Source of the DNA: an uncultured Candidatus Saccharibacteria bacterium
GTDB lineage: Bacteria > Patescibacteriota > Saccharimonadia > Saccharimonadales > CAZDQS01
Direction of reading: 5' to 3'
Assembly: GCA_964507855.1 (NCBI GenBank)
Contig: CAZDQS010000001.1
Location: 230,121-294,120 of the forward strand
Length of the DNA stretch: 64,000 nt
Positions 1 to 40,395 of this stretch are shown one piece after another. The translations under genes and the position numbers were made by a program. Every line of letters begins with the position of its first letter. The stretch's first letter is position 1. The notes under the pieces are model-generated. The model searched no databases. It saw only the letters and a program-made list of their open reading frames with translations, and was not told the DNA's origin.

Positions 1-303
1 TAAAAGCAGTAAGTCATTGATACCGGATGCACGAATCTGTTCGAGACGCTTACTGTAAGCAATCTCGAGGCCTCTGGCGTTGAGTAAGCCTGTTAGGTCA
101 TCATGGGTCGCCATATAATTGAGTCGTTCGTTTTCTTCTCGCAGCTGCAAGTTTTCCCAGGCTCTTTTGCCGGCGTTGTAGGCCGTCTTGTAGACCGACT
201 GCTCGATGTGTGAAGCTCCAGGGAATGGCGTAGAGCTATCAAGCTCCTTGGGAGACTGAACGAAGGGCTGGTTGTCTGGATTAGGGATATGTTGTTCGGG
301 CAT
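1..303 (-). CDS. GGDEF-domain (diguanylate cyclase-like) protein, N-terminal 101 codons; continues past window start
   Basis: Own minus-strand translation from ATG at 303: MPEQHIPNPDNQPF...RAWENLQLREENERLNYMATHDDLTGLLNARGLEIAYSKRLEQIR. The DxLTGLxNRR block is the canonical start of GGDEF domains. Not in the ORF track because it is open at the window edge. Confidence 0.55.
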   Translation of the reverse strand, partial: MPEQHIPNPDNQPFVQSPKELDSSTPFPGASHIEQSVYKTAYNAGKRAWENLQLREENERLNYMATHDDLTGLLNARGLEIAYSKRLEQIRASGINDLLLL

Positions 304-729
304 ACTGTAAATTATAACAATATTAAATACTTGACTATGGTTTTAGATAATAAGGCGCGGGCAGCACGAGGCTTTCTTGATATAGGAACTGTATAGTAAA
401 CCAGACTGAGAGCTATCATCAAAGTCGTACTCGCCAGGCTCGGGTAGGGGCTCAAGATTGTACCGTGATGGGATATCGGACATAAATTTTACTATACAAA
501 ATTAAACTGAATAGCCAATAATCTTAAGAGATTTGCAAGAGATGTGAGTATGGCGTTAACATCATTACGCTATAATCTAATTATAACATAAAAGTTATGT
601 TTATGTCAACATATTAAGTGTATTGATGGCTTCAAAGAGTCTTAAACAAACAAACGTGCGCCTAACAGATGCGTTAGATGGAAAGCCTGCAGGTTCTGTG
701 AATTTTCTGTTGTGGTATAGTTGTGCAGA

Positions 730-1563
730 ATGAGGATAGCTATAATCTCGAAGCGCAAGTCGCCCAATACACTTGATCTGATACATGCAGCAAAGACACG
801 GAATATAACCGCCAAGGTGCACCCGCTGCGCGAACTGGCACTTGAAATTGAACAGCTACCTGAACATGAATTCTTCTCATATGACGCATATATATTTCGC
901 GGCTACAATAAGAATTACGCACTTGCCCAGGCGCTCGTACAGCTACTTATAGCACGCGGAAAAATTGTTCTCGACGGCGTATTAGCCAAAAACTTCATCC
1001 CTTCCAAGCTGCATGAAGCATTGGTGTATAAACAAAATAATATACCGCATATCCCCACCTACTACGCAGGAAGCGTCAGCGCTTGGCAGGCCTCGAATGT
1101 ACGATTAGCTTTCCCGGTTATTGTAAAAGACGTTGATTCACAGCAAGGCAAAGGTGTGCGGCTCTGTCGGAACGAAGCAGAGCTTTTGTCAGAAATTGAG
1201 GCAAAAAACACGAAAATAATAATCCAGCAATTTATCAACATGCAGTTTGATATACGGGTTATTTGTGTAGGGGATAAAGTCATAGGGGCTATAAAGCGTG
1301 AATCGGCAGGTACTGATTTCCGTACAAATATTTCCCAGGGCGGAATTGCGCAAGCATACACGCTCAGCGATGAGGAGCGTTCGCTTGCGTTTCGGGCTCA
1401 CAAGAGTCTGGGTTATGATGTTTCTGGAGTAGATATTACGCGCGATAACGACGGAAACCTCTGCGTAATAGAAACCAATATTACACCTGAATGGCAGGGA
1501 TTTAAGCAGGCCACAGGTATTGATGTGGCAGATATAATAATCCAACACACTATGGAGAAATAA
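730..1563 (+). CDS. RimK-family ATP-grasp ligase, paralog 1
   Basis: ORF 721..1563. ATG at 730 (MRIAIISKR) preferred; it lies 8 nt after TGgTATAGT. ATP-grasp blocks PVIVKDVDSQQGKGV, IIQQFI, DIRVICVGDKV, RTNISQGG, GVDIT..VIETN. Confidence 0.8.
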   Translation: MRIAIISKRKSPNTLDLIHAAKTRNITAKVHPLRELALEIEQLPEHEFFSYDAYIFRGYNKNYALAQALVQLLIARGKIVLDGVLAKNFIPSKLHEALVYKQNNIPHIPTYYAGSVSAWQASNVRLAFPVIVKDVDSQQGKGVRLCRNEAELLSEIEAKNTKIIIQQFINMQFDIRVICVGDKVIGAIKRESAGTDFRTNISQGGIAQAYTLSDEERSLAFRAHKSLGYDVSGVDITRDNDGNLCVIETNITPEWQGFKQATGIDVADIIIQHTMEK

Positions 1564-2498
1564 TGGCAAAATTACGCATTGGATTTTTTAAAGCAGTACA
1601 GGGCTCTTTTACGGCAGAGCGAATAGCCGACATAAAAAGACGTCTCGCTGAAGACTACGGTCACGAAATCGTTGAAGCTGACTTTAGGGAAGGAGTACTT
1701 ATCGACGGTAAAGTATACGTCGGAGAGGTGTGCCTTAATGAAGTGGACGTGTATTTTTGGCATGATACAATCTGGCCTTCGCGTACCGGGGCAGACAGTT
1801 ACTATCTGCATCTGCTGCGTGCTTTAGAGCATGATGTCAAGGTTATAAATACAGCTGCTGGTACAGAGGCAGCTAATGATAAACTTCGCGCACACTCTCT
1901 ACTTCGTGCCGCTGAGCTGCCAGTGGCAAGGTTTGCGCTTGTGAGGAGTGATGACCGTGACGGCATGCAGCGGGCATTCCGGGAACTCGATAGCAAGGTA
2001 TTGATCAAGCCTCGATTTGGTGGCTGGGGGACGGGTATTGTCAGGTGCCAAACCCTTGATGACTTATACGGATTTACCGAGCTCTCAGCAGCTATGAGCG
2101 GTCAGCACCAACAGTTTCTTCTTGAACAGTTTTACGATAATGACCCATCTGGCTGGATATCAATCAGTATGATTGGGCAACAGCCCGTGATTGCCTACAG
2201 GAAGCCACTTTCGCTGGGCGGATCCGACTGGAAGGTGTACGACCCTGACAAGCAGGATGGTAAAGGCGCACAGTCTGAGTACGTTGAGCCGCCGGAAGCG
2301 CTGGTTGCAGTAGCGCAACGTGCGCAACAGGCAATAGGGAAAGATATAATCGGTTTTGACCTTATCAATACGGCCGAAGGTTACAAGATTGTTGACGAGA
2401 ATGGCCGGCCTGGTCTGTATGAGCATTGTCTCCAGCAAGCCAACGCTAGCATTGTTGATCTGGTTACTGAGCTGATCATAAACAAGATAGAAGAATAA
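1563..2498 (+). CDS. Divergent ATP-grasp ligase, paralog 2
   Basis: 311 aa ORF. Start overlaps the upstream stop (TAATG). Blocks LIKPRFGGWGTGIV, LLEQFY, GFDLI..IVDENGRPG fit an ATP-grasp fold. Confidence 0.7.
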   Translation: MAKLRIGFFKAVQGSFTAERIADIKRRLAEDYGHEIVEADFREGVLIDGKVYVGEVCLNEVDVYFWHDTIWPSRTGADSYYLHLLRALEHDVKVINTAAGTEAANDKLRAHSLLRAAELPVARFALVRSDDRDGMQRAFRELDSKVLIKPRFGGWGTGIVRCQTLDDLYGFTELSAAMSGQHQQFLLEQFYDNDPSGWISISMIGQQPVIAYRKPLSLGGSDWKVYDPDKQDGKGAQSEYVEPPEALVAVAQRAQQAIGKDIIGFDLINTAEGYKIVDENGRPGLYEHCLQQANASIVDLVTELIINKIEE

Positions 2499-2547
2499 GC
2501 ATACATAGTATTGAAATTAGTCAAGTAAAATGTTATAATATATAGTT

Positions 2548-2982
2548 ATGGTCTATAGTTCCGAAAAAAAACATATCGGCCCCGTAGAGAAAGTATCTTT
2601 TCCAGATCTTGGCGAAGATATTATTACTGCGCGTATTGATACGGGTGCACAGACATCTGCAATCTGGGCAAGTGAAATAGGTTTTGAGAAAGACCAGCTT
2701 CGCGTGGTATTTTTTGGAGAGGGACACCCCGCGTACACGGGTAAAAGTTTGTATTTTGATCAATTTTCACGCACAAAAGTTATCAGCTCTAACGGCCAGT
2801 CCGAATTGCGTTATAAGATTCCATTGCGCATAGTAATAGGTGGAAAAATAATTCGCAGCCGCTTTACGCTTGCAGATCGCAGCGCACAGAGATATCCGGT
2901 TCTCGTGGGTCGGAATACATTGCGCGGAAAGTTCATCGTGGATGTATCAAAAGATTCACCGCTGCTTAATCGAGGAGAATAA
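2548..2982 (+). CDS. Retropepsin-like aspartic protease of the RimK-associated (DUF785 / RimB-like) family
   Basis: 144 aa. ARIDTGAQTSAIW carries the D-T-G aspartic protease signature. Ends YPVLVGRNTLRGKFIVD. Sits directly upstream of rimK, as in known rimB-rimK pairs. Confidence 0.7.
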   Translation: MVYSSEKKHIGPVEKVSFPDLGEDIITARIDTGAQTSAIWASEIGFEKDQLRVVFFGEGHPAYTGKSLYFDQFSRTKVISSNGQSELRYKIPLRIVIGGKIIRSRFTLADRSAQRYPVLVGRNTLRGKFIVDVSKDSPLLNRGE

Positions 2983-2985
2983 CGA

Positions 2986-3888
2986 ATGAATATCATAATT
3001 TTATCGAAAGGCCCGGGGAATTACTCCACCAAGCGGCTGAAGGAAGAAGCCAAAAAGCGCGGACATAATGTGCGCATTGTTAACTATGCCCGTTGCTATG
3101 TGACGCTGGAAAGCGGCAACCCTGTTGTCAGGTATGAAGGTGAGGAAATCCGGGACGTTGATGTCATCATCCCGCGGATTGCCGCCAGCCTGACCAAGTA
3201 CGGCTCATCCATTGTGCGGCAGTTTGAGATGCAGAATGTTTTCACGACGACAAGCTCGATTGCGATTGTCCGTTCCCGTGACAAGCTGCGGAGCATGCAA
3301 TTGTTTTCAAAGGCCGGGGTCGGTATCCCGAAGACGGTGTTCGCGCGTGAAACTGACGAAGTAGATGACCTTATCGAACAGGTTGGCGGTGCGCCGGTGA
3401 TTATCAAGGTTGCCCGCGGCACACACGGCAAGGGTGTGGTCTTGGCTGAGACCCGCAAGGCCGCCAAGGCGGTAATGCAGGCCTTCTACGTGGAAGGCGT
3501 GAACTTCCTGGTCCAGGAGTATATCGAGGAATCTGCAGGTACTGACATCCGTGCCTTTGTGGTGGGCGGCAAGGTTGTTGCCAGTATGAAACGGCAGAGC
3601 CTTGACGATGACTTCCGCTCTAATCTTCATCAGGGCGGCGAAGGTACACCAGTCAAACTGACGGACGAAGAGCGCAAGACAGCACAAAAGGCTGCCAAGG
3701 CCATGGGTCTATCAATCTGCGGTGTTGATATGATGCGCTCCAGCCGCGGGCCGCTGGTGCTTGAAGTCAATGCCAGCCCTGGATTTGGTATAGAGAAAGT
3801 AACCGGGCGGAATGTTGCTGAAAAGATTATTGACTATGTGGAGCAGAACGCGAAAGGCAAGCGCAAAAAAGACAAAGTCGGTGCGTAA
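2986..3888 (+). CDS. rimK: Ribosomal protein S6 glutamate ligase RimK (ATP-grasp)
   Basis: 300 aa. MNIIILSKGPGNYSTKRLKEEAKKRGH.., PVIIKVARGTHGKGVVL, LVQEYIEES.GTDIRAFVVGGKV, RSNLHQGG, GVDMM..LVLEVNASPG. Confidence 0.9.
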   Translation: MNIIILSKGPGNYSTKRLKEEAKKRGHNVRIVNYARCYVTLESGNPVVRYEGEEIRDVDVIIPRIAASLTKYGSSIVRQFEMQNVFTTTSSIAIVRSRDKLRSMQLFSKAGVGIPKTVFARETDEVDDLIEQVGGAPVIIKVARGTHGKGVVLAETRKAAKAVMQAFYVEGVNFLVQEYIEESAGTDIRAFVVGGKVVASMKRQSLDDDFRSNLHQGGEGTPVKLTDEERKTAQKAAKAMGLSICGVDMMRSSRGPLVLEVNASPGFGIEKVTGRNVAEKIIDYVEQNAKGKRKKDKVGA

Positions 3889-4315
3889 GTACACACAAAC
3901 TCTCTTGAAAATTGCCGCAATAACGCTTGTTGTTGGGGCAATTTTTGTTATCGGCAGTCACCATGATAACGGGGTGCGGTTTGGTACTCGTACTTTGCAG
4001 CTTGAGCGGGTCGATACGGAGGCAGCACGTATTCGTGGCCTATCCGGACGGCAGGGCTTACCAGAGGGACAGGGAATGCTCTTTGTCTTTGACGGGCCGG
4101 GACATCACTGCATGTGGATGAAGGACATGAATTTTGCTATTGATATTGTGTGGCTGGACGGCCATAAGAACGTTGTGCATGTTGAAGAGCGCGTTACGCC
4201 GGAAACATACCCCGAGTCATTTTGCCCGCCGGTTCAGGCGAAGTATGTTATCGAGGTCTCGGACGGCTTTGTCCAGGAATCCGGTCTGGCAACCGGCCAA
4301 CATGTAGATTTTTAG
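3881..4315 (+). CDS. DUF192 family protein with N-terminal membrane anchor
   Basis: ORF 3812..4315. A GTG at 3881 overlapping the rimK stop is the more likely start. GMLFVF..HCMWMKDMNFAIDIVWLD..V matches the DUF192 core. Confidence 0.65.
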   Translation: MRKYTQTLLKIAAITLVVGAIFVIGSHHDNGVRFGTRTLQLERVDTEAARIRGLSGRQGLPEGQGMLFVFDGPGHHCMWMKDMNFAIDIVWLDGHKNVVHVEERVTPETYPESFCPPVQAKYVIEVSDGFVQESGLATGQHVDF

Positions 4316-10079: not shown

Positions 10080-11636
10080 ATGAACAGGTTGTTCTGTTTG
10101 GTGCTGCTATTTGGAGGGACATTGTTGTTGCCTCTTGTGCCGCAGACAGCCTACGCCGCAGATGAACCGCGGCTATTTATTAGCACAGTCAAGACAAGCG
10201 GTGGGAATACGAGCGAGAAAACAGTTGAGTATATTGAGCTGTATAACGCGGGGCTTGCGGACGTTTCTCTGGATGGGTGGTTCGTTGAGTATGCCAAGCC
10301 GTCAAGTGGGCGAGGGCCAGAAAGCTGTGGTACTGATCCGTGGGATAGTCCGGATCTTACGGTAACAGAAGTCACGTTAAGCGGGACGGTTTTTTGGCAC
10401 GATGCTTTGCGGGTACCGCTCAGAATGAATGACAATGTAGCCGGTAGTCTCCGCCTGGTGCGGCGGGTTACGGACGATTCGGTAGTCGTGCATGATGTTG
10501 TGGGGTGGGGGAGCGAAACGTCGGTTGCTTACTGCTTTGAAGGGACTGCTGCTGTAATTCCAAAAGGCGATACAGCGCTCATGCGCTGCACGGTGGATGG
10601 CATCCCAGACGATGTAAATGATAACTCGAGAGATTTTCAGCTTATTGCAGTGGGCGATGGCCCAGAGCCGTGCGAGCCGCCGCTTGTTGATGAATCGGAT
10701 GAAGACGAAACGCTCGATCCTATTGTGTACTATCCAGTTGAGATTACAGAGCTACTACCCGATCCTGGCGCAGGGTTGCTCGATAGCGAGGATGAGTTCA
10801 TTGAGCTGTATAATCCGAATGAATTTGCCGTCAACATAGAAGGTTACAGACTCTTTACAGGGAGTGCCAGCAAGTCGTATGAGTACGCGCTGCCGGATCT
10901 AACGCTGGCGCCGAAAGCCTATGTAGCCCTCTACGCACGCGATACGAAATTATCGCTTGTGAATACAACCGGCTATGCGTGGATTGAAGCGCCTGACGGG
11001 ACGCTGCTGTCCGAAACGCATTGGTATGAGAATATAAAATCCGATATCGCGTGGGCGCTGATTGATAACGCATGGGTGGCAACCAATCAGCCGACACCCG
11101 GTGCTGCAAACAAAGCATCTCTTATCGATGAAGCGGCGGCAAAAGCGGCCAACACCGAGTTGCCACCATGTGGCGAGGGACGATATCGTCATCCTGAAAC
11201 CAACCGCTGCCGGAATATCGAAACAGCTACCAGTGAACTGGTGCCATGCCGCGAAGGTCAAGTCCGCAATCCCGACACCAACCGGTGCCGCGCTATCACG
11301 ACAGCAAGTTCTGATCTAACACCGTGCCGCCCTGGCCAAGAGCGTAATCCTGAAACCAACCGCTGCCGAAACGTGGCGGCTGCCACGACCGAGCTGAAAC
11401 CCTGCCAGGAGGGGTATGAGCGCAACCCCGAAACCAATCGTTGCCGCAAGATAGCCGTGAACACAGCTGCGGCTTTGGCGGGTGAAACCACCCAAGCAAG
11501 ACCCGACTATACACTTATCGGTATCGGCTTGGCGGCTGCCTTTGGCTACGCTGCATATGAGTACCGGCAAGACTTTGGCAATGCACTTCATAAGATTCGC
11601 ACCCAACGCACTATCAACAAAAGTGCAGGCAAGTAG
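10080..11636 (+). CDS. Surface protein with two lamin-tail (LTD) domains, four Cys-rich 26-aa repeats and a C-terminal TM anchor
   Basis: Signal peptide MNRLFCLVLLFGGTLLLPLVPQTAYA. LTD-like EYIELYNAG..DVSLDGW and EFIELYNPN..NIEGY. 4x PCxxGxxRNPETNRCR. TM helix LIGIGLAAAFGYAAY. Confidence 0.7.
   Translation: MNRLFCLVLLFGGTLLLPLVPQTAYAADEPRLFISTVKTSGGNTSEKTVEYIELYNAGLADVSLDGWFVEYAKPSSGRGPESCGTDPWDSPDLTVTEVTLSGTVFWHDALRVPLRMNDNVAGSLRLVRRVTDDSVVVHDVVGWGSETSVAYCFEGTAAVIPKGDTALMRCTVDGIPDDVNDNSRDFQLIAVGDGPEPCEPPLVDESDEDETLDPIVYYPVEITELLPDPGAGLLDSEDEFIELYNPNEFAVNIEGYRLFTGSASKSYEYALPDLTLAPKAYVALYARDTKLSLVNTTGYAWIEAPDGTLLSETHWYENIKSDIAWALIDNAWVATNQPTPGAANKASLIDEAAAKAANTELPPCGEGRYRHPETNRCRNIETATSELVPCREGQVRNPDTNRCRAITTASSDLTPCRPGQERNPETNRCRNVAAATTELKPCQEGYERNPETNRCRKIAVNTAAALAGETTQARPDYTLIGIGLAAAFGYAAYEYRQDFGNALHKIRTQRTINKSAGK
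11163..11470 (+). repeat. Four tandem 78-bp coding repeats (PC..G...RNPETNRCR units)
   Basis: Units start near 11163, 11241, 11319 and 11397. Each carries a conserved cc(t/c)gaaaccaaccgctgccg core. Confidence 0.8.
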
Positions 11637-33018: not shown

Positions 33019-34552
33019 TGGTACTCTCCTCGACGACCGGAATGGTCTTTGCTTTTAGATTAATACGAGATGTGAGTTGGCGAAAGAGGGCCGGGTCACG
33101 GTCGGCGACACGCTCCAGCCAATTGCTGACCGTCTCTAGCGCATCGGAAATGCTGATGGAATCTTCTTGCTCATGCATCAGGTGCGGATGGTCGTGCCGG
33201 ACTTGTGCGACGACATCACCAAACACGCGGGGCAGAACGGTACTGCGTCGGCCGAGGCTGTCTACAAGTGTGAGGTACGTTTGGGCGGCGCGCAGGATTT
33301 CTGATGCCTCAAGCCGCATGACGAGGCCAAAACGGTTGTCTTTGTTGATCATTTGGTTCAGTAATTGGAAAATGCGGCCGTCAGCGAGGATGGCCCGCAC
33401 ATCACTTTCACCGACAATCTTGACGAACGATTCTTGGGCGACTTTGCCGACTTCTGTAGTGAAGTTGGCCTGTGCCTCTGGCTTATGAGCGAGGGCGCTG
33501 AGCCGCTTGAGCGAACGGTAGAGGTCGCTCACAAAGAACCGGATAAACTGCTCGAAGAGCGCGGTGATGTTGTCGCTGTTGGTGTACATGCGGTTCCATT
33601 CTTCAAGCAGGCCGAAGAACGCGGATTTGTCGTGCGGGGTGCGGGCGGCAATACCAAAGTCAATCAGGCCGACTTTGTTATCCGGCATGAGCTTGATGTT
33701 GCCAGGATGCGGATCGCCCGGGATGCGGTGGAGGTTGAAGATGCCGTTTAAGGCCTCAAACCCGAGGGTGTAGAGCTGCTCGTCCAGGTCTGATCCCAGC
33801 TGATCTTTGACGTATTGGTATGGATTGACGCCCTGTTCCTGGAGCTTGACCAGGTAGGCAACCGAGATGCCGTCGACATATTCCTGGACAATGATGTGCG
33901 ATGTACACAGTTCAGTGAACGTTTCCGGAATGACGAGGTGCGGATGGTCTTTGTAGGTTTCGTATAGCTCGGCGGCAAATTCTGCCTCGGCATTGTAGTC
34001 GGTCTCATGCAGGGTTGCTTCGCGGAATTCTTTGATAGCGCCGTTAATGTTCACATCCATGTTTTTGTACAACTTGACGAAAAAGCTGCGGGTGAACGCG
34101 CTCAAGAGTCGCAAATCATAGCGAAGCAGTTCCCGCACCATTGGCCGCAGCACTTTAATGATAATCGGTTTGCCGCTAACATGCTGGCCGTAATACACCT
34201 GCCCAAAACTGCCCGCGGCGAATGGCTGCGGCTGAACCATGGTGATTTGCGCCAGTTTTTCAGGCGGTAGTTCTTTTCTGAGGATGCCAACGACGTCGAG
34301 CGGTTCGGTCTCCAGGTTTTCGAATATCTTCAGCCGTTCCGGGTTGTGCCACCGTCGCATAATTTGGCTCTTGAGCATAACACCCTGGAGGAACTTGATG
34401 TACACGCCGCCTAGGCTCATGAATTCATTACAGACAATGGTATACATTCGGTCTTCACGGCCGCGGCGACGCAGGTAGTAAGCTCGGGTAATGAGCTTCG
34501 CGAGGCGCGCGGTCCGGTTCCGTTTGATCGCGTTGATTGAGCTGGCGCGCAT
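33011..34552 (-). CDS. ABC1/UbiB (AarF) family atypical kinase
   Basis: 513 aa; AAGSFGQVY, IIKVLRP, PGDPHPGNI, LIDFG. Confidence 0.85.
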   Translation of the reverse strand: MRASSINAIKRNRTARLAKLITRAYYLRRRGREDRMYTIVCNEFMSLGGVYIKFLQGVMLKSQIMRRWHNPERLKIFENLETEPLDVVGILRKELPPEKLAQITMVQPQPFAAGSFGQVYYGQHVSGKPIIIKVLRPMVRELLRYDLRLLSAFTRSFFVKLYKNMDVNINGAIKEFREATLHETDYNAEAEFAAELYETYKDHPHLVIPETFTELCTSHIIVQEYVDGISVAYLVKLQEQGVNPYQYVKDQLGSDLDEQLYTLGFEALNGIFNLHRIPGDPHPGNIKLMPDNKVGLIDFGIAARTPHDKSAFFGLLEEWNRMYTNSDNITALFEQFIRFFVSDLYRSLKRLSALAHKPEAQANFTTEVGKVAQESFVKIVGESDVRAILADGRIFQLLNQMINKDNRFGLVMRLEASEILRAAQTYLTLVDSLGRRSTVLPRVFGDVVAQVRHDHPHLMHEQEDSISISDALETVSNWLERVADRDPALFRQLTSRINLKAKTIPVVEESTNV

Positions 34553-34564
34553 AAATTAGATCCG

Positions 34565-34723
34565 TTACTTCTTGGAGAATCCAATTAAGAATAAAACAAC
34601 AGTAGAGCCCGTAACGGCCAGGTAAAGTTCAAAGACTTCTTTGGCTTCTCGCCGGGTCAGCGCCATGAGGATAATGGCAAACCATATCAATAGGATGGTA
34701 AAGAAGATGGAAGCATACTTCAT
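34565..34723 (-). CDS. Small two-TM membrane protein
   Basis: MKYASIFFTILLIWFAIILMAL..VVLFLIGFSKK. C-terminal tail resembles that of 32830..33018. Confidence 0.45.
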   Translation of the reverse strand: MKYASIFFTILLIWFAIILMALTRREAKEVFELYLAVTGSTVVLFLIGFSKK

Positions 34724-34842
34724 TAGGAGTCTAATTATATCATATTTACATTTTATATCCACATTACTAACAGAGGTAGCTTTTTGCAAGAAAATACGGT
34801 ATAATTTTCCAGTCGTATCCCTTATTGAAGGGAAAAGAGCAG

Positions 34843-34865
34843 CGGGGATTGGCGCAGTTGGCTAG
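34843..34865 (+). pseudogene. Orphan 5' 23 nt of tRNA-Pro (acceptor 5' strand + D arm)
   Basis: cggggattggcgcagttggctag is identical to 35017-35039. Confidence 0.8.
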
Positions 34866-34972
34866 TGTGAGAACTGCCAGTGGCAGTTCGGAAACGAATC
34901 TTCTCTTGCAAACTTGTTTGCAAAGATGAAGTTCGGGGGTCGCGGAACGTGACCGCGGGTACCGCGCGCAGA
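34866..34972 (+). repeat. Type I three-hairpin module fused to the tRNA-Pro 5' fragment
   Basis: TGTGAGAACTGCCAGTGGCAGTTCGGAAACGAATCTTC[TCTTGCAAA CTTG TTTGCAAAGA]TGAAGTTCGGGGGTCGCGGAACGTGACCGCGGGTACC. Collinear with 42316..42434 and 7360..7445(-). Confidence 0.6.
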
Positions 34973-35016
34973 CATTCCGACAGTACTTTAAAATATAGAC
35001 AGTCAGTTACATACGA

Positions 35017-35093
35017 CGGGGATTGGCGCAGTTGGCTAGCGCGCGCGGTTTGGGACCGCGAGGTCGGAGGTTCGAGTCCTCTATCCCCGACCA
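35017..35093 (+). tRNA. tRNA-Pro(UGG), CCA encoded
   Basis: CGGGGAT TG GCGC AGTTGGCTA GCGC G CGCGG TTTGGGA CCGCG AGGTC GGAGG TTCGAGT CCTCT ATCCCCG A CCA. Confidence 0.95.
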
Positions 35094-36751
35094 CGTTCGA
35101 AATTTTTAGATTTAAGGAACTCTGCATAGGGTTCCTTAAGTTTTATATCGACTACTTTCCATCTGGTAATCTTGTTTTTTGGTGGTACAAATTCACCCTC
35201 TACAACAAGGTTCGAGATGAACTTTTCAAGGATTTTATTAAAGACCGTAACGCTCGTTGTTGACCGAAGTAAATCAGCTACATTATCGAATAGTTCGAGA
35301 TACTTTTCGTAAGTAGGTATGACAGTCTTCAAACGTTCTCGTTCAGCTTTAGCAATTTTATGAGCGTTCCTGAGTCTCTTTAGTTCAGCCCTGTAATCTT
35401 TCAGGTCTTCTTTGTAATGCTCTGCCAGCTCCTTATCTTCACCTGATACTATTAGCTTGGCTCTATTGTAATCACGTTGTGTATCTGTAATTTGTTTATT
35501 CAATGAACTGATTATGGAATAAAGCTGTCTAAGTCGAGCTTCTCTACTCTCTGCTACTTCTACGGCATAATTATCATAGTTGCTCTTAGTTGTGAAACGG
35601 TATTTATCTAGGTAGTCGATTGCATAGTCTGTAATCACTTTAGCTCTAGGTCCCTTGTCTTTCATAATACAACCGTCTGTCTCGCACCTATATCGGTAGT
35701 AGTTGACATCTTTCTTAACAGTGATGCCCGAAGATAAGGATTTACCACAAGCCTTACAGAATACTTTTCCAAGCAGAAGGTTGGCTTTTACTTGATCGGA
35801 GGGGGCTGTTATCGATGACTTAAATTTACTCGACATAAAGTCTTTGGCTTGATTGATTTTCAGGAAGTCTTCGGCACCGATTGCAGGTGTAAATCCATAC
35901 TTCTCGATTATATTGACGACACCACCACTGTATCTAATTATTCCTGCATAAGTCGGGTCGCTTAAAATATTGGAAACACTGTCTTTATCCCACTTATATG
36001 CAAAATGACCATCTTGTTTGTATTTGAATACTCTGTAATCACTTCTACCGTTCAAGTAACGCAAAATGTTAGCCTGAGACTTGCCCTCAATACGCATGTC
36101 AAAAGCATGCTTAATAATATTGTAGTTTTCGCCATCAGGGTACAGTTTGCCTTTCTCGGTTTTTAGATACCCGTGCAAAAAGCTACGCAAGAACTTGCCA
36201 CTAAGCGTCTTACGTTTGTTCCCACGAGTAACTACTTCACTCTGGTGTTCTGAAAATTGTTTAGCAAGTACGAAGGACATGCCCAGCAACATCTTACCTG
36301 CTGGATTGTTTTCAAAAGTTGATGTGGCGAAACGTAAATCTTTGATAATACCCTTGTCGAGCAGGTCTATGATTTCGCCAGCTTCTTTCATGTTTCTTGC
36401 AAGCCTGTCGGGGTGATACGAGATTATGCCGTCGTACTTGCCACTAATGACATCATCAAGCATCTTACGAAATAAAGGACGTATATCAGGCTCTTTAGCT
36501 GAACCATCCTCTTTAATAATGTCATTCTCGTCAAGTGATATACCGTCATATCCGACTACTCGTTCTTTACATTCGGCTATCTGGTCTTCTTTAGATTTTG
36601 CTTGCCGAGTTTCGTCAGTCGTTGATTTACGAGCATATAAGACATAGCGCAGGTTTTCTGGTTTGTAGAACTCCTCCTCAGCTTGAGTAGAGGATTGTAG
36701 CATTTCAAAGAGTTGTTCAAGAGGAGTACTGTTTGGTGCTAAGTCTGACAT
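35081..36751 (-). CDS. Large serine recombinase (resolvase catalytic domain + recombinase domain + zinc ribbon + coiled coil)
   Basis: YVLYARKSTTDE (catalytic Ser), ..HPDRLARN.., CKACGKSLS..YYRYRCETDGC zinc ribbon, long C-terminal coiled coil. The last 4 codons and stop lie inside the tRNA-Pro 3' end. Confidence 0.9.
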   Translation of the reverse strand: MSDLAPNSTPLEQLFEMLQSSTQAEEEFYKPENLRYVLYARKSTTDETRQAKSKEDQIAECKERVVGYDGISLDENDIIKEDGSAKEPDIRPLFRKMLDDVISGKYDGIISYHPDRLARNMKEAGEIIDLLDKGIIKDLRFATSTFENNPAGKMLLGMSFVLAKQFSEHQSEVVTRGNKRKTLSGKFLRSFLHGYLKTEKGKLYPDGENYNIIKHAFDMRIEGKSQANILRYLNGRSDYRVFKYKQDGHFAYKWDKDSVSNILSDPTYAGIIRYSGGVVNIIEKYGFTPAIGAEDFLKINQAKDFMSSKFKSSITAPSDQVKANLLLGKVFCKACGKSLSSGITVKKDVNYYRYRCETDGCIMKDKGPRAKVITDYAIDYLDKYRFTTKSNYDNYAVEVAESREARLRQLYSIISSLNKQITDTQRDYNRAKLIVSGEDKELAEHYKEDLKDYRAELKRLRNAHKIAKAERERLKTVIPTYEKYLELFDNVADLLRSTTSVTVFNKILEKFISNLVVEGEFVPPKNKITRWKVVDIKLKEPYAEFLKSKNFERGRG

Positions 36752-37013
36752 AACTTAATTCTACATGTCTTAAGCAGTAAGCTGAAAAGTCAAAATAAGA
36801 CCATGCTTATAGTTGTAAGGATTACATCAATAATTGGCCAAAAATTATAAAGGTGCCAGCATATACGTCAAATAGTGAAAAAGATGAACAGAACTCATTG
36901 CTAAAAGCCCCTTTGGACGCATTTCTAGCGGGCTGGACGAGCTCTTATGTCAAATTTGATGACTATAACCCATCCTTGTGGCTAATGCTATTTATCCCTG
37001 TTATGATATAGCT

Positions 37014-37646
37014 ATGAAACTCCCCGAAATTAGAATTAGCTTTGCTTGGTTGCTCTTTTATGGCGAATCACAATCCTTAGCTGAAGCTCACGACTTTAAG
37101 CTTGAGTCATACGACCATTATGACCAAAAGACGGCAGAGTACAGAAAGGCTTGGAAGAAGCATGAGAAACAAATAATTCACGGGCTTCAAACATCATTGG
37201 GAGTGGAATTCTATAAGCCTGTTATTGACGTAAGTTGTACACCTTATTTCATACCAAAAAGTGATCCGCTAATTATGAACTTCAAGGAAACGCCTGACCA
37301 GTTTATTGACGTTTTGACCCATGAGCTTTGCCATGTATTGCTTACGGACAATAATAAGCACCAGAGTAATGGTGAAAATCCTAAAATGGATTTGATTGCA
37401 GTATGGAAGAAGATGTTTAACGGCGAAAAAGACTTCAATGTACTAGCACACATTCCAGTTCACGCTCTATGTAAATATATTTACCTTGACGTGCTTAAAG
37501 AGCCTTCACGATTAGAGCGAGATAAAAAAGCTGTAGAGGAATGGGACAATAGTGGTGCTTACAAAACCTCATGGGCTTACGTGGAAAGTCACGACTATAA
37601 GGAAATTATTGAAAAGCTAAAAGAATCTTACGAGGTACATAAATAA
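37014..37646 (+). CDS. Hypothetical HExxH-motif protein (possible zinc metallopeptidase)
   Basis: DVLTHELCHVLL. ATG at 37014 lies 6 nt after TGtTATGAT. Confidence 0.5.
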   Translation: MKLPEIRISFAWLLFYGESQSLAEAHDFKLESYDHYDQKTAEYRKAWKKHEKQIIHGLQTSLGVEFYKPVIDVSCTPYFIPKSDPLIMNFKETPDQFIDVLTHELCHVLLTDNNKHQSNGENPKMDLIAVWKKMFNGEKDFNVLAHIPVHALCKYIYLDVLKEPSRLERDKKAVEEWDNSGAYKTSWAYVESHDYKEIIEKLKESYEVHK

Positions 37647-38266
37647 TGTCTCTACCATGTGATATTGTTTTGCTGCCCTCAATAGAACTAGCGAACAAGG
37701 CTATTGAAGCTAGTAAAGCAACCAATAAATACGAGAGCTTCTTCACGCTAGAAGATGGTAAGTTCTATCCCCACATGTCTCTGTATATGTTCCAGCTTGA
37801 TGAGACTGATATATCTAAGGTCGAAGAAGTACTTACAAGAATTGCTAATGATACGAAAGTTATTACAGCTAAGGCAACAACTTACAGTTTGGGTACAGGG
37901 TTTGGTGTTGGTTATGTTGATCCTGAGTACGAAGTAACTGAAGGACTAAGCAGCTTACAAGATAAAGTAGTAGAAGCGGTCAATCCAATTCGAGCAGGTA
38001 TGCGTGAAAGTGATATTAAGAAAATGCAGGACGCCGAAGGTATTAAGCTGGAGAATCTACAAAAGTATGGGTATCCAGCAATCGGTGAATTGTTTAGACC
38101 CCACATTACCCTTACTAGATTGAAAGAACATAATCCTAAGGTCTTAGAGTTATTACCGCAGGATGTAACTTCATTTAGTGGTGTCTTTGATAGACTAGGG
38201 TTATTTGAAATGGGCGAGAACGGCACTTGTATAAGGAAAATAGCAGAATTCCCACTCTCAAATTAG
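37646..38266 (+). CDS. 2H phosphoesterase superfamily protein (LigT / cyclic phosphodiesterase-like)
   Basis: Two HxS/TL motifs about 105 residues apart: YPHMSLYMF and FRPHITLTRL. Start overlaps the upstream stop (TAATG). Confidence 0.65.
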   Translation: MSLPCDIVLLPSIELANKAIEASKATNKYESFFTLEDGKFYPHMSLYMFQLDETDISKVEEVLTRIANDTKVITAKATTYSLGTGFGVGYVDPEYEVTEGLSSLQDKVVEAVNPIRAGMRESDIKKMQDAEGIKLENLQKYGYPAIGELFRPHITLTRLKEHNPKVLELLPQDVTSFSGVFDRLGLFEMGENGTCIRKIAEFPLSN

Positions 38267-38414
38267 ACCAAAACCCATTATTGTATAATATGTTTTCTAA
38301 CAGGGGTCGGCGAAAATAACACTAGCACTTGACAGGCCCATATGTCGCTAAAAATCAGGGCCTACCCCTGTTAGGGTATGACCGACAACGTACATTGTGC
38401 GACACAAATTTAAC

Positions 38415-39197
38415 TTACTTTACTTCAGGAAATTGAAGATTGTCGTATCTTTCTGACTTAAAAGTAAATGATTCTAGCGGATAAATCTTAAATGACTTTT
38501 GGACTTTATCTTCACTAATTTCAGCAGTCAGTACTTTGTCTGATAATACTTTAACCACCAATTCTTTTCTGTCATTTGTAAGATAGACGTTGTCCCGCTT
38601 AAGAGCTGTACTCTGTCCTAAATAGTAAACACCCTGTAATAAAAAGAGGAATATGAATAAGTAGGTAACGAACCCACCTGGCAATTTGGATATGTAGCCA
38701 CCTATAATATTTGGCGTTTTGTCGTTTGAAAATGCTTGCTGGTGTCTTTCTTCTTCGGCAGCAACTTTGTTTAGATAACCCTTTACTTTGCGTTGGGAAG
38801 CTATGGGCATAATAAAGTCAGCAATAAGCACAGTTGCAAGTAATATAACGCCAAATGCAGGTATTGCACCCGACCTTTGCGTATCAGCAAATATTAGCTT
38901 CAGAAATATAAAGTAAAGCAAAGCCATAAAGAGACGAATCAATGGATATTGTAGGGATTTCCTGGCTAAGGTATGGAGCTCATAGAATTTAATGATAACG
39001 ACAACAAAGACTAACAATATAGACATTGCTGCTAAAGATTTAAGTACTGACTGTATGGTTATCTCAATAAAGTCATTTGATAACCCAAAGACGCTGTTGT
39101 AGCCCTGCTCGTACAGAAAGACCAGACCGTATGCAATTAAAGGCACGATGGCAACTGCAACATTAAATCTATCAAAAAAGACAGGTTCTTTTTTCAT
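38415..39197 (-). CDS. Hypothetical polytopic membrane protein
   Basis: 260 aa; about 6 TM helices plus a soluble C-terminal tail. ATG lies 6 nt after TGtTAGCAT. Confidence 0.6.
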   Translation of the reverse strand: MKKEPVFFDRFNVAVAIVPLIAYGLVFLYEQGYNSVFGLSNDFIEITIQSVLKSLAAMSILLVFVVVIIKFYELHTLARKSLQYPLIRLFMALLYFIFLKLIFADTQRSGAIPAFGVILLATVLIADFIMPIASQRKVKGYLNKVAAEEERHQQAFSNDKTPNIIGGYISKLPGGFVTYLFIFLFLLQGVYYLGQSTALKRDNVYLTNDRKELVVKVLSDKVLTAEISEDKVQKSFKIYPLESFTFKSERYDNLQFPEVK

Positions 39198-39298
39198 ACC
39201 TATATGCTAACATCCGTGCTTATTAAAGGGTAAAGCTTAAGCTTCTGGGTCTATGCCGTTGTCTTCAAGCCAAGCGTCACCTCTACTATGATGAAGTG

Positions 39299-39841
39299 CT
39301 AAAGCTTCTCAATAATCTTGTTGAGTTTAGTGGGCGAAAGTTGGTATACGGCTTCGGTTCTTAAGTCGCCAGCGATGTCTATTGTAATTAGCTCAATTCT
39401 ATCAAACATGCTCGACGGTATATCCTTGTGATTGGCAGTCATGATAAGCATGTCGTTGTTCCTGTATTTGTAAGCAACTGAGCACAATAAAGCATCTGTG
39501 TAGCTTGGACCCTTGTCACCTTTTGCAGAAAAGGCTTTGGCATAAGCAATTCGGAATACAGGCTCCTTCTCTACCATCTCCTCTACTCTTGGTAGCACTG
39601 TTATATTAAGGGTTTTGATGAATTCCTGTCGTTCGTTGTAACCAGTAATTGTATTTGCGTTACGAGTAAATTCGTAGACAACGGAAGGTATAGTTACAAG
39701 ACCACATCCTGCCGATGACAATTCAGACATAAGAGCCAAGAACTCATCCGATTTCGAAGCGTTAATCAGTACAGTTGTATCAAGTAGTAAGTGTTTACTG
39801 CTAAGGTCTGCTGCCAGTGTAGAGGTGTGTTGAAGTTTCAA
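39299..39841 (-). CDS. PIN-domain nuclease (VapC-like toxin candidate)
   Basis: LLLDTTVLINASKSD (first acidic residue), ..EFTRNA.., ..YTDALLCSVAY.., ..IMTANHKDIP. Confidence 0.7.
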   Translation of the reverse strand: MKLQHTSTLAADLSSKHLLLDTTVLINASKSDEFLALMSELSSAGCGLVTIPSVVYEFTRNANTITGYNERQEFIKTLNITVLPRVEEMVEKEPVFRIAYAKAFSAKGDKGPSYTDALLCSVAYKYRNNDMLIMTANHKDIPSSMFDRIELITIDIAGDLRTEAVYQLSPTKLNKIIEKL

Positions 39842-40010
39842 TAGGATAGTCCTCGACGGTCTTTCGGATTTCTTTGGCTAGTTTTTTCAGTTTTGTAACG
39901 TCTGGCTTTGCAGCCTTTTTCTGATCCAGTGAATCTGAGTAATCAGGCTTACTAATCTGACGTTCAAGTTCTTTGATTTTCTTTTCGTTAATCATAGCGG
40001 TTATCTCCAT
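39801..40010 (-). CDS. Small charged protein upstream of the PIN gene (antitoxin candidate)
   Basis: 69 aa; overlaps the PIN start by 41 nt. Promoter TGtTATACT with a 7-bp inverted repeat AACAAAG-N9-CTTTGTT at 40023-40045. Confidence 0.45.
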   Translation of the reverse strand: MEITAMINEKKIKELERQISKPDYSDSLDQKKAAKPDVTKLKKLAKEIRKTVEDYPIETSTHLYTGSRP

Positions 40011-40122
40011 AAGTAGTATAACAAAGCTAAAATTACTTTGTTGATGATAATTCTCACACCACTTGAATAACTATAGTTCGAGGGGTTTATTCTTTATAGA
40101 TAATAACGTCGAAAATAAGAGG

Positions 40123-40395
40123 TCAGGAGGTCTTTTTCTTTTTGTCTTTGGCTTTCATTTTTTCGATTTGTTTCAACGTAAGCCCACCTTCTGCTTCGGG
40201 CCTAATTAGCTCAACATCTCTACCACTACTGTCTTTGAGTTTAGTTGGATTTGCCAGTTCTTCTGGCGACTTATCTAGCTTAATAGCATTACCGAACTCA
40301 TCAATAAGGGTGTCGCCGAAAACAACATTTCCCTCTGTTACGGCAATCTCACGTGCTTCTTCAAGTAGCTCGGCAGTCTCGCTATGATTACCCAT
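40123..40395 (-). CDS. Hypothetical acidic/lysine-tailed protein
   Basis: 90 aa ORF in the island. Confidence 0.45.
   Translation of the reverse strand: MGNHSETAELLEEAREIAVTEGNVVFGDTLIDEFGNAIKLDKSPEELANPTKLKDSSGRDVELIRPEAEGGLTLKQIEKMKAKDKKKKTS

Follow-up and report, generated by a model that had tools for sequence, protein, structure and literature searches.

Do several amide ligases and a protease whose genes lie side by side act on one common product, and what would that product be? This question is raised by the beginning of a 64,000-nucleotide stretch of DNA from an uncultured Candidatus Saccharibacteria bacterium of the Candidate Phyla Radiation (CPR) (contig CAZDQS010000001.1, positions 230,121 to 294,120; the whole stretch is called the window in the following). 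Positions 730-4315 of the window hold three mutually divergent ATP-grasp genes of the RimK/LysX clade, namely grA, grB and rimK, together with the genes of a RimB-like retropepsin and a DUF192 protein; grA and grB are working names given in this analysis. Every gene listed in the initial annotation of this DNA, which had been made by reading the sequence, was recovered where it had been placed, with family matches far beyond chance (Table 1). We give about even chances to the reading that these genes belong to one modular system of ligases and a peptidase which builds and trims a glutamate-rich peptide chain.

A canonical rimB-rimK pair

RimK and RimB form, to our knowledge, the only well-studied bacterial system that adds amino acids to a ribosomal protein and removes them again in order to retune translation. 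Both enzymes act on ribosomal protein S6 as well as on free poly-Glu. RimB of Pseudomonas is an endopeptidase that takes poly-Glu off S6 and cuts internal Glu runs, and it stimulates the synthesis of free poly-alpha-Glu by RimK (PMC11957791).

The rimK product of the window reached 327.9 bits with the S6-ligase equivalog model NF007764 (cutoff 331) and 260 bits with TIGR00768 (cutoff 143). Over its full length it matched the Pseudomonas RimK structure sequence 7qyr with 331 bits and RimK of E. coli with 290 bits, and the DK, K-G-rich loop, DIR, RSNxxxGG, GVD and EVN motifs are conserved. Its relatives form more than 120 clusters at 83-89% identity; those with a named source come from Saccharimonadales, Saccharibacteria or Patescibacteria. 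For the rimB product the best NCBIfam match was RimB (NF052261) with 63.4 bits, below the equivalog cutoff of 200, followed by RloA3 with 56 bits. The motif D31-T-G-A is invariant in all 12 aligned CPR homologues, and D31 corresponds to the catalytic residue of Pseudomonas RimB as shown by mutation (PMC11957791). The protein has neither a signal peptide nor a hydrophobic N-terminus, its domain begins at residue 10 and it is predicted to be cytoplasmic. As far as sequence comparison can tell, rimK is a canonical homologue of poly-alpha-L-glutamate/S6 glutamate ligases and rimB is a RimB-type retropepsin with an intact catalytic Asp. Profile scores, structure-sequence matches and the D31-T-G motif agree with the earlier description of the two genes as a canonical, known pair.

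Two ligase families specific to CPR

By their NCBIfam scores all three ligases belong to the RimK/LysX/MptN clade and are remote from Ddl, carboxylases, glutathione synthetase and cyanophycin synthetase. For the two extra ATP-grasp genes this placement, rather than one with the Ddl or carboxylase type, is also borne out by structure matches. With the Ddl models the ligases of the window scored 27-41 bits (cutoffs 243-246), and a Ddl-type ligase was rejected. The solved members of the clade of grA and grB use C-terminal carboxylates of proteins as substrates: S6 in the case of RimK, LysW in that of LysX/ArgX.

The grA product scored 160 bits with TIGR00768 (cutoff 143) and 95 bits with 7qyr, the latter for residues 128-274 only: it has a RimK-like C-terminal half and a diverged N-terminal domain. 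The motifs DxR, RxNxxxG, GVD and ExN, that is all catalytic and acceptor-side motifs, are retained. Orthologues of grA comprise about 39 clusters above 130 bits, after which the score drops abruptly to canonical RimK at about 104 bits.

The grB product is more divergent. Its closest solved relatives by sequence are LysX and RimK of T. thermophilus (about 33 bits). The AlphaFold2 model (mean confidence score pLDDT 92.7) superposed best on LysX, RimK and ArgX with TM-scores of about 0.7 at 15-20% identity. The ATP/Mg motifs (DK, KPRFGGWG, E, FD, DEN) are retained, but DxR and RxNxxxGG are missing, with other sequence including an insertion in their place. We used KPRFGGWG, FD and DENGRPG without DxR or RxNxxxGG as the signature of grB; the gene of the window carries it and has grA directly upstream. 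The family comprises 85 clusters at 90% identity, all matches with a named source are from Patescibacteria, and among 1.84 billion proteins only 40 representatives had E<=1e-30. Distant grB-like proteins with 30-37% identity (L017, L018, L021, L033, L035-L039) were excluded from the counts of the pair; they are solitary or lie beside other ligases (GCS2+FGase, a Mur ligase or another ATP-grasp). By these searches grA and grB are CPR-specific families, and both are probably further active ATP-grasp amide ligases. Since the acceptor-side motifs kept in RimK and grA are replaced in grB, the latter probably acts on a different substrate.

Weak matches to graspetide maturases and to LysX raised the question whether the ligases make a graspetide or serve LysX/ArgX-type amino acid biosynthesis on a carrier protein. 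We consider this extremely unlikely. The maturase models TIGR04187 and TIGR04185 gave 24-39 bits (cutoffs 350-425), and the LysX model gave 63-148 bits (cutoff 276). No LysW, LysZ, LysY, LysJ or LysK gene was found in the window or in 40 related loci, and there is no conserved small open reading frame (ORF). The sole candidate, an acidic ORF of 46 amino acids (483..343, -) within the AT-rich sequence that separates grA from the GGDEF gene, has no homologue in the other loci; being present in the window genome only, it was rejected as a precursor or carrier. We therefore rejected both the graspetide and the LysW-carrier reading. Anti-phage defence was rejected as well, as none of six proteins had a PADLOC match.

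The grA-grB pair is found beside peptidase genes across CPR

For the comparison of gene order 43 loci were fetched. About 20 distinct loci extend far enough to show it, and in each of them grA is the gene immediately upstream of grB. The pair is located beside a peptidase gene in all architectures and usually beside further ATP-grasp genes. Three architectures were distinguished. The first, found in nine distinct loci of Saccharibacteria, has the order dnaJ - grA - grB - rimB - rimK - (DUF192) - small membrane protein. The second, found in nine distinct loci of other CPR, has the order yebC - ruvC - 7TM_transglut - RloC-type ATP-grasp::RloA-type retropepsin - [ATP-grasp] - grA - grB - [ATP-grasp] - PBP1, in which the RloC-type ATP-grasp matches TIGR02291 with 295 bits and the 7TM protein belongs to PF14402. 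The extra genes of this architecture are always ATP-grasps, of four kinds and in two positions. In the third (L009/L023/L024) grA - grB is followed by a MATCAP-like metallocarboxypeptidase (PF08014). Genes of this peptidase family are located downstream of grA-grB in L009/L023 and upstream of grA in the Saccharibacteria locus L005 and in L032; a literature search gave no informative paper on bacterial MATCAP/DUF1704 proteins with ATP-grasps.

The named metagenome-assembled genomes (MAGs) with the second architecture are Parcubacteria or Moraniibacteriota. Four of the loci (L007, L008, L013, L014) carry the unverified labels Pseudobdellovibrionaceae, Micavibrio, Pseudomonadales and Bdellovibrionales; either these MAG labels are wrong or predatory or epibiotic proteobacteria have the system too.

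The extra ATP-grasps keep their synteny with rimB-rimK in each of the nine distinct Saccharibacteria loci having grA-grB, as had been claimed for the window. The initial annotation had named an ordinary biosynthetic clade together with missing rimK synteny as the outcome that would speak against it. We found the reverse, because grA and grB are of the RimK/LysX clade, are syntenic with rimB-rimK and elsewhere in CPR lie with ATP-grasp and peptidase genes. As evidence for a functional linkage, the pattern across lineages outweighs synteny confined to Saccharibacteria.

In 8 of the 9 non-Saccharibacteria loci the gene after the cluster encodes a class A penicillin-binding protein (PBP), and rlo mutants of Pseudomonas show morphology and osmotic defects (PMC11957051). 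Both would agree with the synthesis of a cell-wall peptide, be it a peptidoglycan side chain, a cross-bridge or an envelope peptide. However, the PBP gene is part of a conserved origin-proximal order PBP-dciA-dnaN-dnaA and is absent from the Saccharibacteria loci, none of the proteases has a signal peptide, and the Ddl-model scores given above are far below the cutoffs. A role in cell-wall synthesis is thus improbable, and we rejected it.

An exchangeable ligase slot in front of rimB-rimK

In Saccharibacteria the block rimB - rimK - (DUF192) - membrane protein of about 165 amino acids is constant and is located between dnaJ and comEC-yebC-ruvCAB. The slot from dnaJ to rimB, in contrast, holds amide ligases of changing type. 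We counted at least five cassettes, grA-grB being one among them. In L040 the slot contains a protein of 394 amino acids with no assigned family and an ATP-grasp resembling L-amino-acid ligases (LAL), in the P0331 locus and in L041 one ATP-grasp alone, of 310-319 amino acids, and in L042 a divergent ATP-grasp together with a Mur ligase. In L043 a RimB::RimK fusion is adjoined by a divergent ATP-grasp_4 protein and a glycosyltransferase. The gene neighbourhood noted for the window is thus conserved in so far as grA-grB is kept beside rimB-rimK in nine loci, but the pair is only one of several exchangeable cassettes.

The ATP-grasp of L041 (4569-5528), directly upstream of rimB-rimK, ends in ...QEEEEEEE; no other ORF in the approximately 400 kb examined has a poly-Glu C-terminus. 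This counts towards the reading of one system: poly-Glu runs are cut by RimB, and Glu tails are lengthened by RimK. The tailed ligase may possibly be a built-in substrate of RimK and RimB.

Three further genes were noticed in these loci. The 394-residue slot protein of L040 (4931-6115) gave no profile match and contains the sequence FGANMAPGSL, which we take to resemble the YGSN motif of gamma-glutamyl cyclotransferase-like enzymes. The other two encode further peptide-bond enzymes close to the block: a class-II aminoacyl-tRNA-synthetase-like protein of 286 amino acids is encoded two genes after RimB::RimK in L043 (8257-9117), and a Peptidase_S51 gene (cyanophycinase/dipeptidase E family) lies between yebC and ruvC in L019 (16159-16797).

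A changing cassette fits a variable product better than a conserved ribosomal target, and the product could be a free or non-protein polyamide of the cyanophycin type. RimK would then make a poly-alpha-Glu backbone, RimB would create new chain ends and recycle the polymer, and the exchangeable ligases (grA/grB, Mur ligase, LAL-type ATP-grasp) would decorate side chains or ends; the product might be stored or passed to the envelope via DUF192 and the small membrane protein. An ATP-grasp and a Mur ligase lie by rimB-rimK in L042, and a grB-like ATP-grasp adjoins a Mur ligase in L038; we take these pairs to recall the G and M domains of cyanophycin synthetase. ATP-grasps resembling the G domain of this enzyme (171 bits) were found in three CPR grA-grB clusters, and a putatively exported DUF192 protein is a frequent neighbour and the membrane protein a constant one. 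The envelope phenotypes of Pseudomonas RloABC point in the same direction (PMC11957051). On the other hand, no polymer has been observed and no exporter could be recognised. The small membrane protein shows no relationship to the 7TM domain of RloB, 5 of 12 loci are without DUF192, and rimK almost reaches the score of an S6-ligase equivalog. We therefore rate a free polyamide as possible but doubtful.

Gene junctions and transcription

The coordinates of the genes and promoter-like sites are collected in Table 1.

Table 1. Genes and predicted promoters at the beginning of the window
Feature	Position	Strand	Basis or remark
GGDEF gene, first 101 codons, cut by the window edge	303..1	-	translation; divergent from grA
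Promoter-like site facing the GGDEF gene, TTGACA-18-TATAAT with TG	580..609	-	12/12 consensus match; sigma-70-like, predicted only
grA, RimK-family ATP-grasp ligase, 277 aa	730..1563	+	Pfam RimK domain E=1.4e-39
grB, divergent ATP-grasp ligase, 311 aa	1563..2498	+	Pfam RimK domain 36.8 bits, E=3.9e-9
Internal promoter TTGAAA-17-TGtTATAAT	2511..2539	+	11/12 consensus matches plus TG; the ATG of rimB follows after 8 nt
rimB-like retropepsin-type aspartic endopeptidase, 144 aa	2548..2982	+	PF05618 E=9.5e-20, 71 bits
rimK, 300 aa	2986..3888	+	PF08443 RimK domain E=1.1e-59; PF18030 Rimk_N E=3.9e-35
DUF192 protein	3881..4315 (longest ORF from 3812)	+	PF02643 E=5.3e-29, 100.6 bits (cutoff 27)
G8/CEMIP beta-helix/dockerin protein, 763 aa	4317-6608	-	between DUF192 and small membrane protein
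Small membrane protein, 161 aa	6647..7132	+	4-5 hydrophobic segments, basic C-terminal tail

The most likely start of grA is ATG 730 rather than TTG 721. Reading the grA/grB junction we found a TAATG overlap preceded by the Shine-Dalgarno (SD) sequence GGAG; as read from this overlap, grB is translationally coupled to grA. Between rimB and rimK there are 3 nt with the SD sequence GAGGAG. The junctions thus have the form described earlier. The gap between grB and rimB comprises 49 nt with 20% GC and is not a mere spacer but contains a conserved promoter: TTG and the extended -10 element TGnTAnAAT are invariant in all eight grA-grB loci of Saccharibacteria (8/8), and the ATG of rimB follows 6-9 nt downstream. 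No SD sequence was found before rimB in these eight loci. Since the conserved promoter ends 6-9 nt before the ATG and no SD sequence is present, rimB-rimK very likely has a transcript of its own, which is probably leaderless.

A sequence scan detected no terminator-like site between grB and rimB, so read-through from grA-grB is possible. In related genomes grA starts 10-19 nt after dnaJ, and grA-grB is therefore probably co-transcribed with the chaperone genes.

An overlap of DUF192 with the rimK stop had been claimed as well, and it depends on the start codon: it amounts to 77 nt with ATG 3812 and to 8 nt with GTG 3881, whereas there is none with TTG 3905. Homologues of DUF192 begin 18-24 nt past the end of rimK, and GTG 3881 or TTG 3905 is a more likely start than ATG 3812.

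The separate promoter is also the first of several observations suggesting two unrelated systems that happen to adjoin: rimB-rimK acting on S6 as in Pseudomonas and grA-grB acting on something else, for example a small peptide or a glutamylated metabolite, with the gene order frozen in a reduced genome. Either half is found without the other. RimK of the window is 84-86% identical to loci without grA-grB and only 74% to L003, although L003 is the closest relative by DnaJ, grA, grB and RimB. Between Saccharibacteria genomes RimK is 84-86% identical where DnaJ is 74-76% identical, and it is conserved above DnaJ, YebC and RuvC. Furthermore, the GC content at third codon positions (GC3) shifts at the rimB/rimK boundary: it is 0.38-0.47 for grA, grB and rimB in comparison to 0.62 for rimK and 0.59-0.68 for the flanking housekeeping genes. 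The discordant identity and the GC3 shift would fit a recombinational exchange of the cassette or of rimK. In contrast, grA-grB lies next to a peptidase everywhere and usually next to other ATP-grasps too, in three different architectures. The genes directly upstream of rimB-rimK in Saccharibacteria are amide ligases of changing type, and no terminator was detected between grB and rimB. Two unrelated systems therefore appear rather unlikely to us.

A proposed modular system for a glutamate-rich chain

In the favoured reading of one modular ligase and peptidase system, RimK would elongate an alpha-linked Glu chain on a C-terminus, with ribosomal protein S6 as the default acceptor by homology. 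RimB would cut this chain back and may stimulate RimK as in Pseudomonas; possibly it also primes the chain. The products of grA and grB would contribute one or two other residues to this chain, either as initiator or as cap or branch. By analogy, a single chain is supported by the ability of ATP-grasps to act sequentially as initiator and elongator, as MyfA/MyfB do. The genes grA-grB would be transcribed with or after dnaJ and rimB-rimK from the leaderless promoter; with the two halves transcribed separately, separate regulation is possible. As the ligase slot is exchangeable, the composition of the product would differ between lineages. In the sub-lineage of the window the neighbouring diguanylate cyclase may feed cyclic-di-GMP to RimK.

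Several points weigh against this reading. The S6 gene rpsF was not found in the window or in any fetched locus, and a ligase slot that varies is a poor fit for a conserved target like S6. In Saccharibacteria rimB-rimK is much more widespread than grA-grB, while in other CPR grA-grB occurs without RimK; since each half occurs alone, each can work without the other. A conserved promoter, as predicted from the aligned loci, is located between grB and rimB, so that the five genes are not one obligatory, tightly coupled operon. Synteny within Saccharibacteria carries little weight because unrelated genes (dnaJ, comEC, yebC, ruvC) are equally conserved neighbours. Finally, the reading is built on genes and sequence comparison.

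A bolder, speculative version, to which we assign a low probability, is that a variable "tail code" is written by CPR bacteria, or that they produce a mixed polyamide of a new kind. RimK would add alpha-linked glutamates, RimB or MATCAP-like peptidases would erase them, and interchangeable lineage-specific ligases (grA/grB, Mur ligase, LAL-type ATP-grasps) would supply caps or branches other than Glu. As acceptor one could think of the ribosome (S6), of the ligases, one of which itself ends in EEEEEEE, or of a free cyanophycin-like polymer. If true, this would be a prokaryotic counterpart of the glutamylation/tyrosination cycle of tubulin or a new class of non-ribosomal poly-amino acids, in organisms with almost no biosynthetic capacity. 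The conserved RimK, the swappable amide ligases and the CPR-wide pairing of grA-grB with peptidases suggest a peptide-ligation chemistry in ultra-small symbionts that goes beyond a simple Glu tail. This idea would moreover assign a first function to two enzyme families specific to CPR, and perhaps to DUF192.

Comparison with known systems

RimABK of Pseudomonas consists of the glutamate ligase RimK, the retropepsin RimB and the EAL phosphodiesterase RimA (PMC4741518, PMC11957791, PMC10092738). The locus of the window resembles it in that rimB is directly upstream of rimK, in the full-length RimK homologue, in the catalytic D31-T-G of a protease without signal peptide and, in some genomes, in the adjoining gene of a cyclic-di-GMP enzyme. 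It differs in that RimA/EAL is missing, with a GGDEF cyclase in its stead in 3 of about 10 loci. Furthermore, extra ligase cassettes lie in front, DUF192 and the small membrane protein follow, and rimB-rimK has its own promoter, apparently of leaderless type. RimBK hybrid proteins exist, e.g. DP2392 of Desulfotalea psychrophila (PMC11957791). RimB::RimK fusions likewise occur in Saccharibacteria (P0419, P0425, P0434, L043), whereas the genes of the window are separate.

RloABC of Pseudomonas aeruginosa comprises the secreted retropepsin RloA, the inactive transglutaminase-7TM protein RloB and the ATPgrasp_ST protein RloC; mutants show envelope phenotypes with morphology and osmotic defects, and RloB was described as 96% proteobacterial (PMC11957051). 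The similarity concerns the non-Saccharibacteria CPR, in which grA-grB lies beside 7TM_transglut, an RloC-type ATP-grasp and an RloA-type retropepsin. However, there the ATP-grasp carries the retropepsin as a C-terminal fusion, for which reason the latter is taken to be cytoplasmic, the transglutaminase domain is missing, and two to three additional ATP-grasps are present. The window itself has no Rlo-specific parts and its protease lacks a signal peptide.

In Methylorubrum the two ATP-grasp ligases MyfA and MyfB act in sequence on the polyglutamate side chain of methylofuran, an initiator followed by a RimK-like Glu elongator (PMC8141765). Going by this description, sequential action of ATP-grasp ligases on one chain is the common element, whereas the acceptor of MyfA/MyfB is a cofactor and no peptidase is involved. 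We know of no CPR bacterium that makes methylofuran.

In the eukaryotic tubulin tyrosine ligase/MATCAP cycle an acidic C-terminal tail gains and loses residues through an ATP-grasp ligase and a PF08014 carboxypeptidase. Genes of the MATCAP type adjoin grA-grB in L005, L009/L023 and L032, but the window is without one. Cyanophycin synthetase CphA1 (TIGR02068) combines an ATP-grasp backbone ligase (G), a Mur-type side-chain ligase (M), an N domain and a primer-generating peptidase activity. Related loci contain G-domain-like ATP-grasps and Mur ligases; here, in contrast, the ligases are separate proteins of the RimK clade with 30-87 bits (cutoff 850), and the window has no Mur ligase. A similarity in working principle is nevertheless conceivable.

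Earlier descriptions exist of RimK-RimB, RimBK fusions and RloABC. What looks undescribed is the CPR-wide grA-grB pair, the clusters with RloC::RloA fusions and the exchangeable ligase slot before a highly conserved RimK of Saccharibacteria; among the papers searched, none links RimK or ATP-grasp clusters with CPR.

Neighboring genes

The initial annotation had placed a divergent GGDEF gene upstream of the ligases. The gene is divergent as described, but only 101 codons without the GGDEF motif lie inside the window, and this portion gave weak NCBIfam matches to DgcN/SiaD. On a longer contig of the same genome (L001, 2042-2761, -) the full gene encodes 239 amino acids (PF00990) with intact GGDEF and RxxD sites. 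It is located on the opposite strand between dnaJ and grA, and its end overlaps that of dnaJ by 4 nt (tail-to-tail). Two other Saccharibacteria loci with different cassettes have a GGDEF gene in this position with an identical overlap, which makes about 3 of 10 in total, and the GGDEF proteins of these loci are mutually only 33% identical. Cyclic-di-GMP stimulates RimK of Pseudomonas (PMC10092738), and a parallel link had been proposed for the window. The recurrence of the GGDEF neighbour lends this modest synteny support, but it is limited, and no EAL/RimA gene was found in the window region or in any related locus. The parallel is plausible, if weakly supported.

DUF192 follows rimK in 7 of 12 loci (window, L003, L004, L005, L040, L041 and the P0331 locus) and is missing in L006, L019, L025, L042 and L043; the neighbour noted in the window is thus frequent but not constant. 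A hydrophobic N-terminus suggests that the protein is exported or membrane-anchored. In the literature we found no informative paper on DUF192.

Members of the small membrane protein family (about 165 amino acids) were found downstream in all 10 Saccharibacteria loci reaching that far, and from this synteny we infer that the protein belongs to the system. As a reduced RloB-type 7TM domain (PF14402) it was rejected (hhalign probability 0.6%). Its homologues (L003, L004, L005, L006, L040-L043) have a basic tail with a near-terminal His (KKKH, RKKH, NHR, HHG, GKH), and in the first five sequences aligned the final residue is an invariant His. The G8/dockerin gene in front of it was not found at this position in any related locus and so appears to be a lineage-specific insertion that encodes a surface or secreted protein.

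Elsewhere in the window

Between yebC and ruvC the window encodes a lamin-tail (LTD) protein of 518 amino acids (10080-11636); an LTD protein was also found after comEC in L041. A low-GC island at 34500-40200 (about 0.39, the mean of the window being 0.50) begins at a tRNA gene (35017-35090); it contains a gene for a large serine recombinase (35081-36751, -). The island is probably an integrated mobile element.

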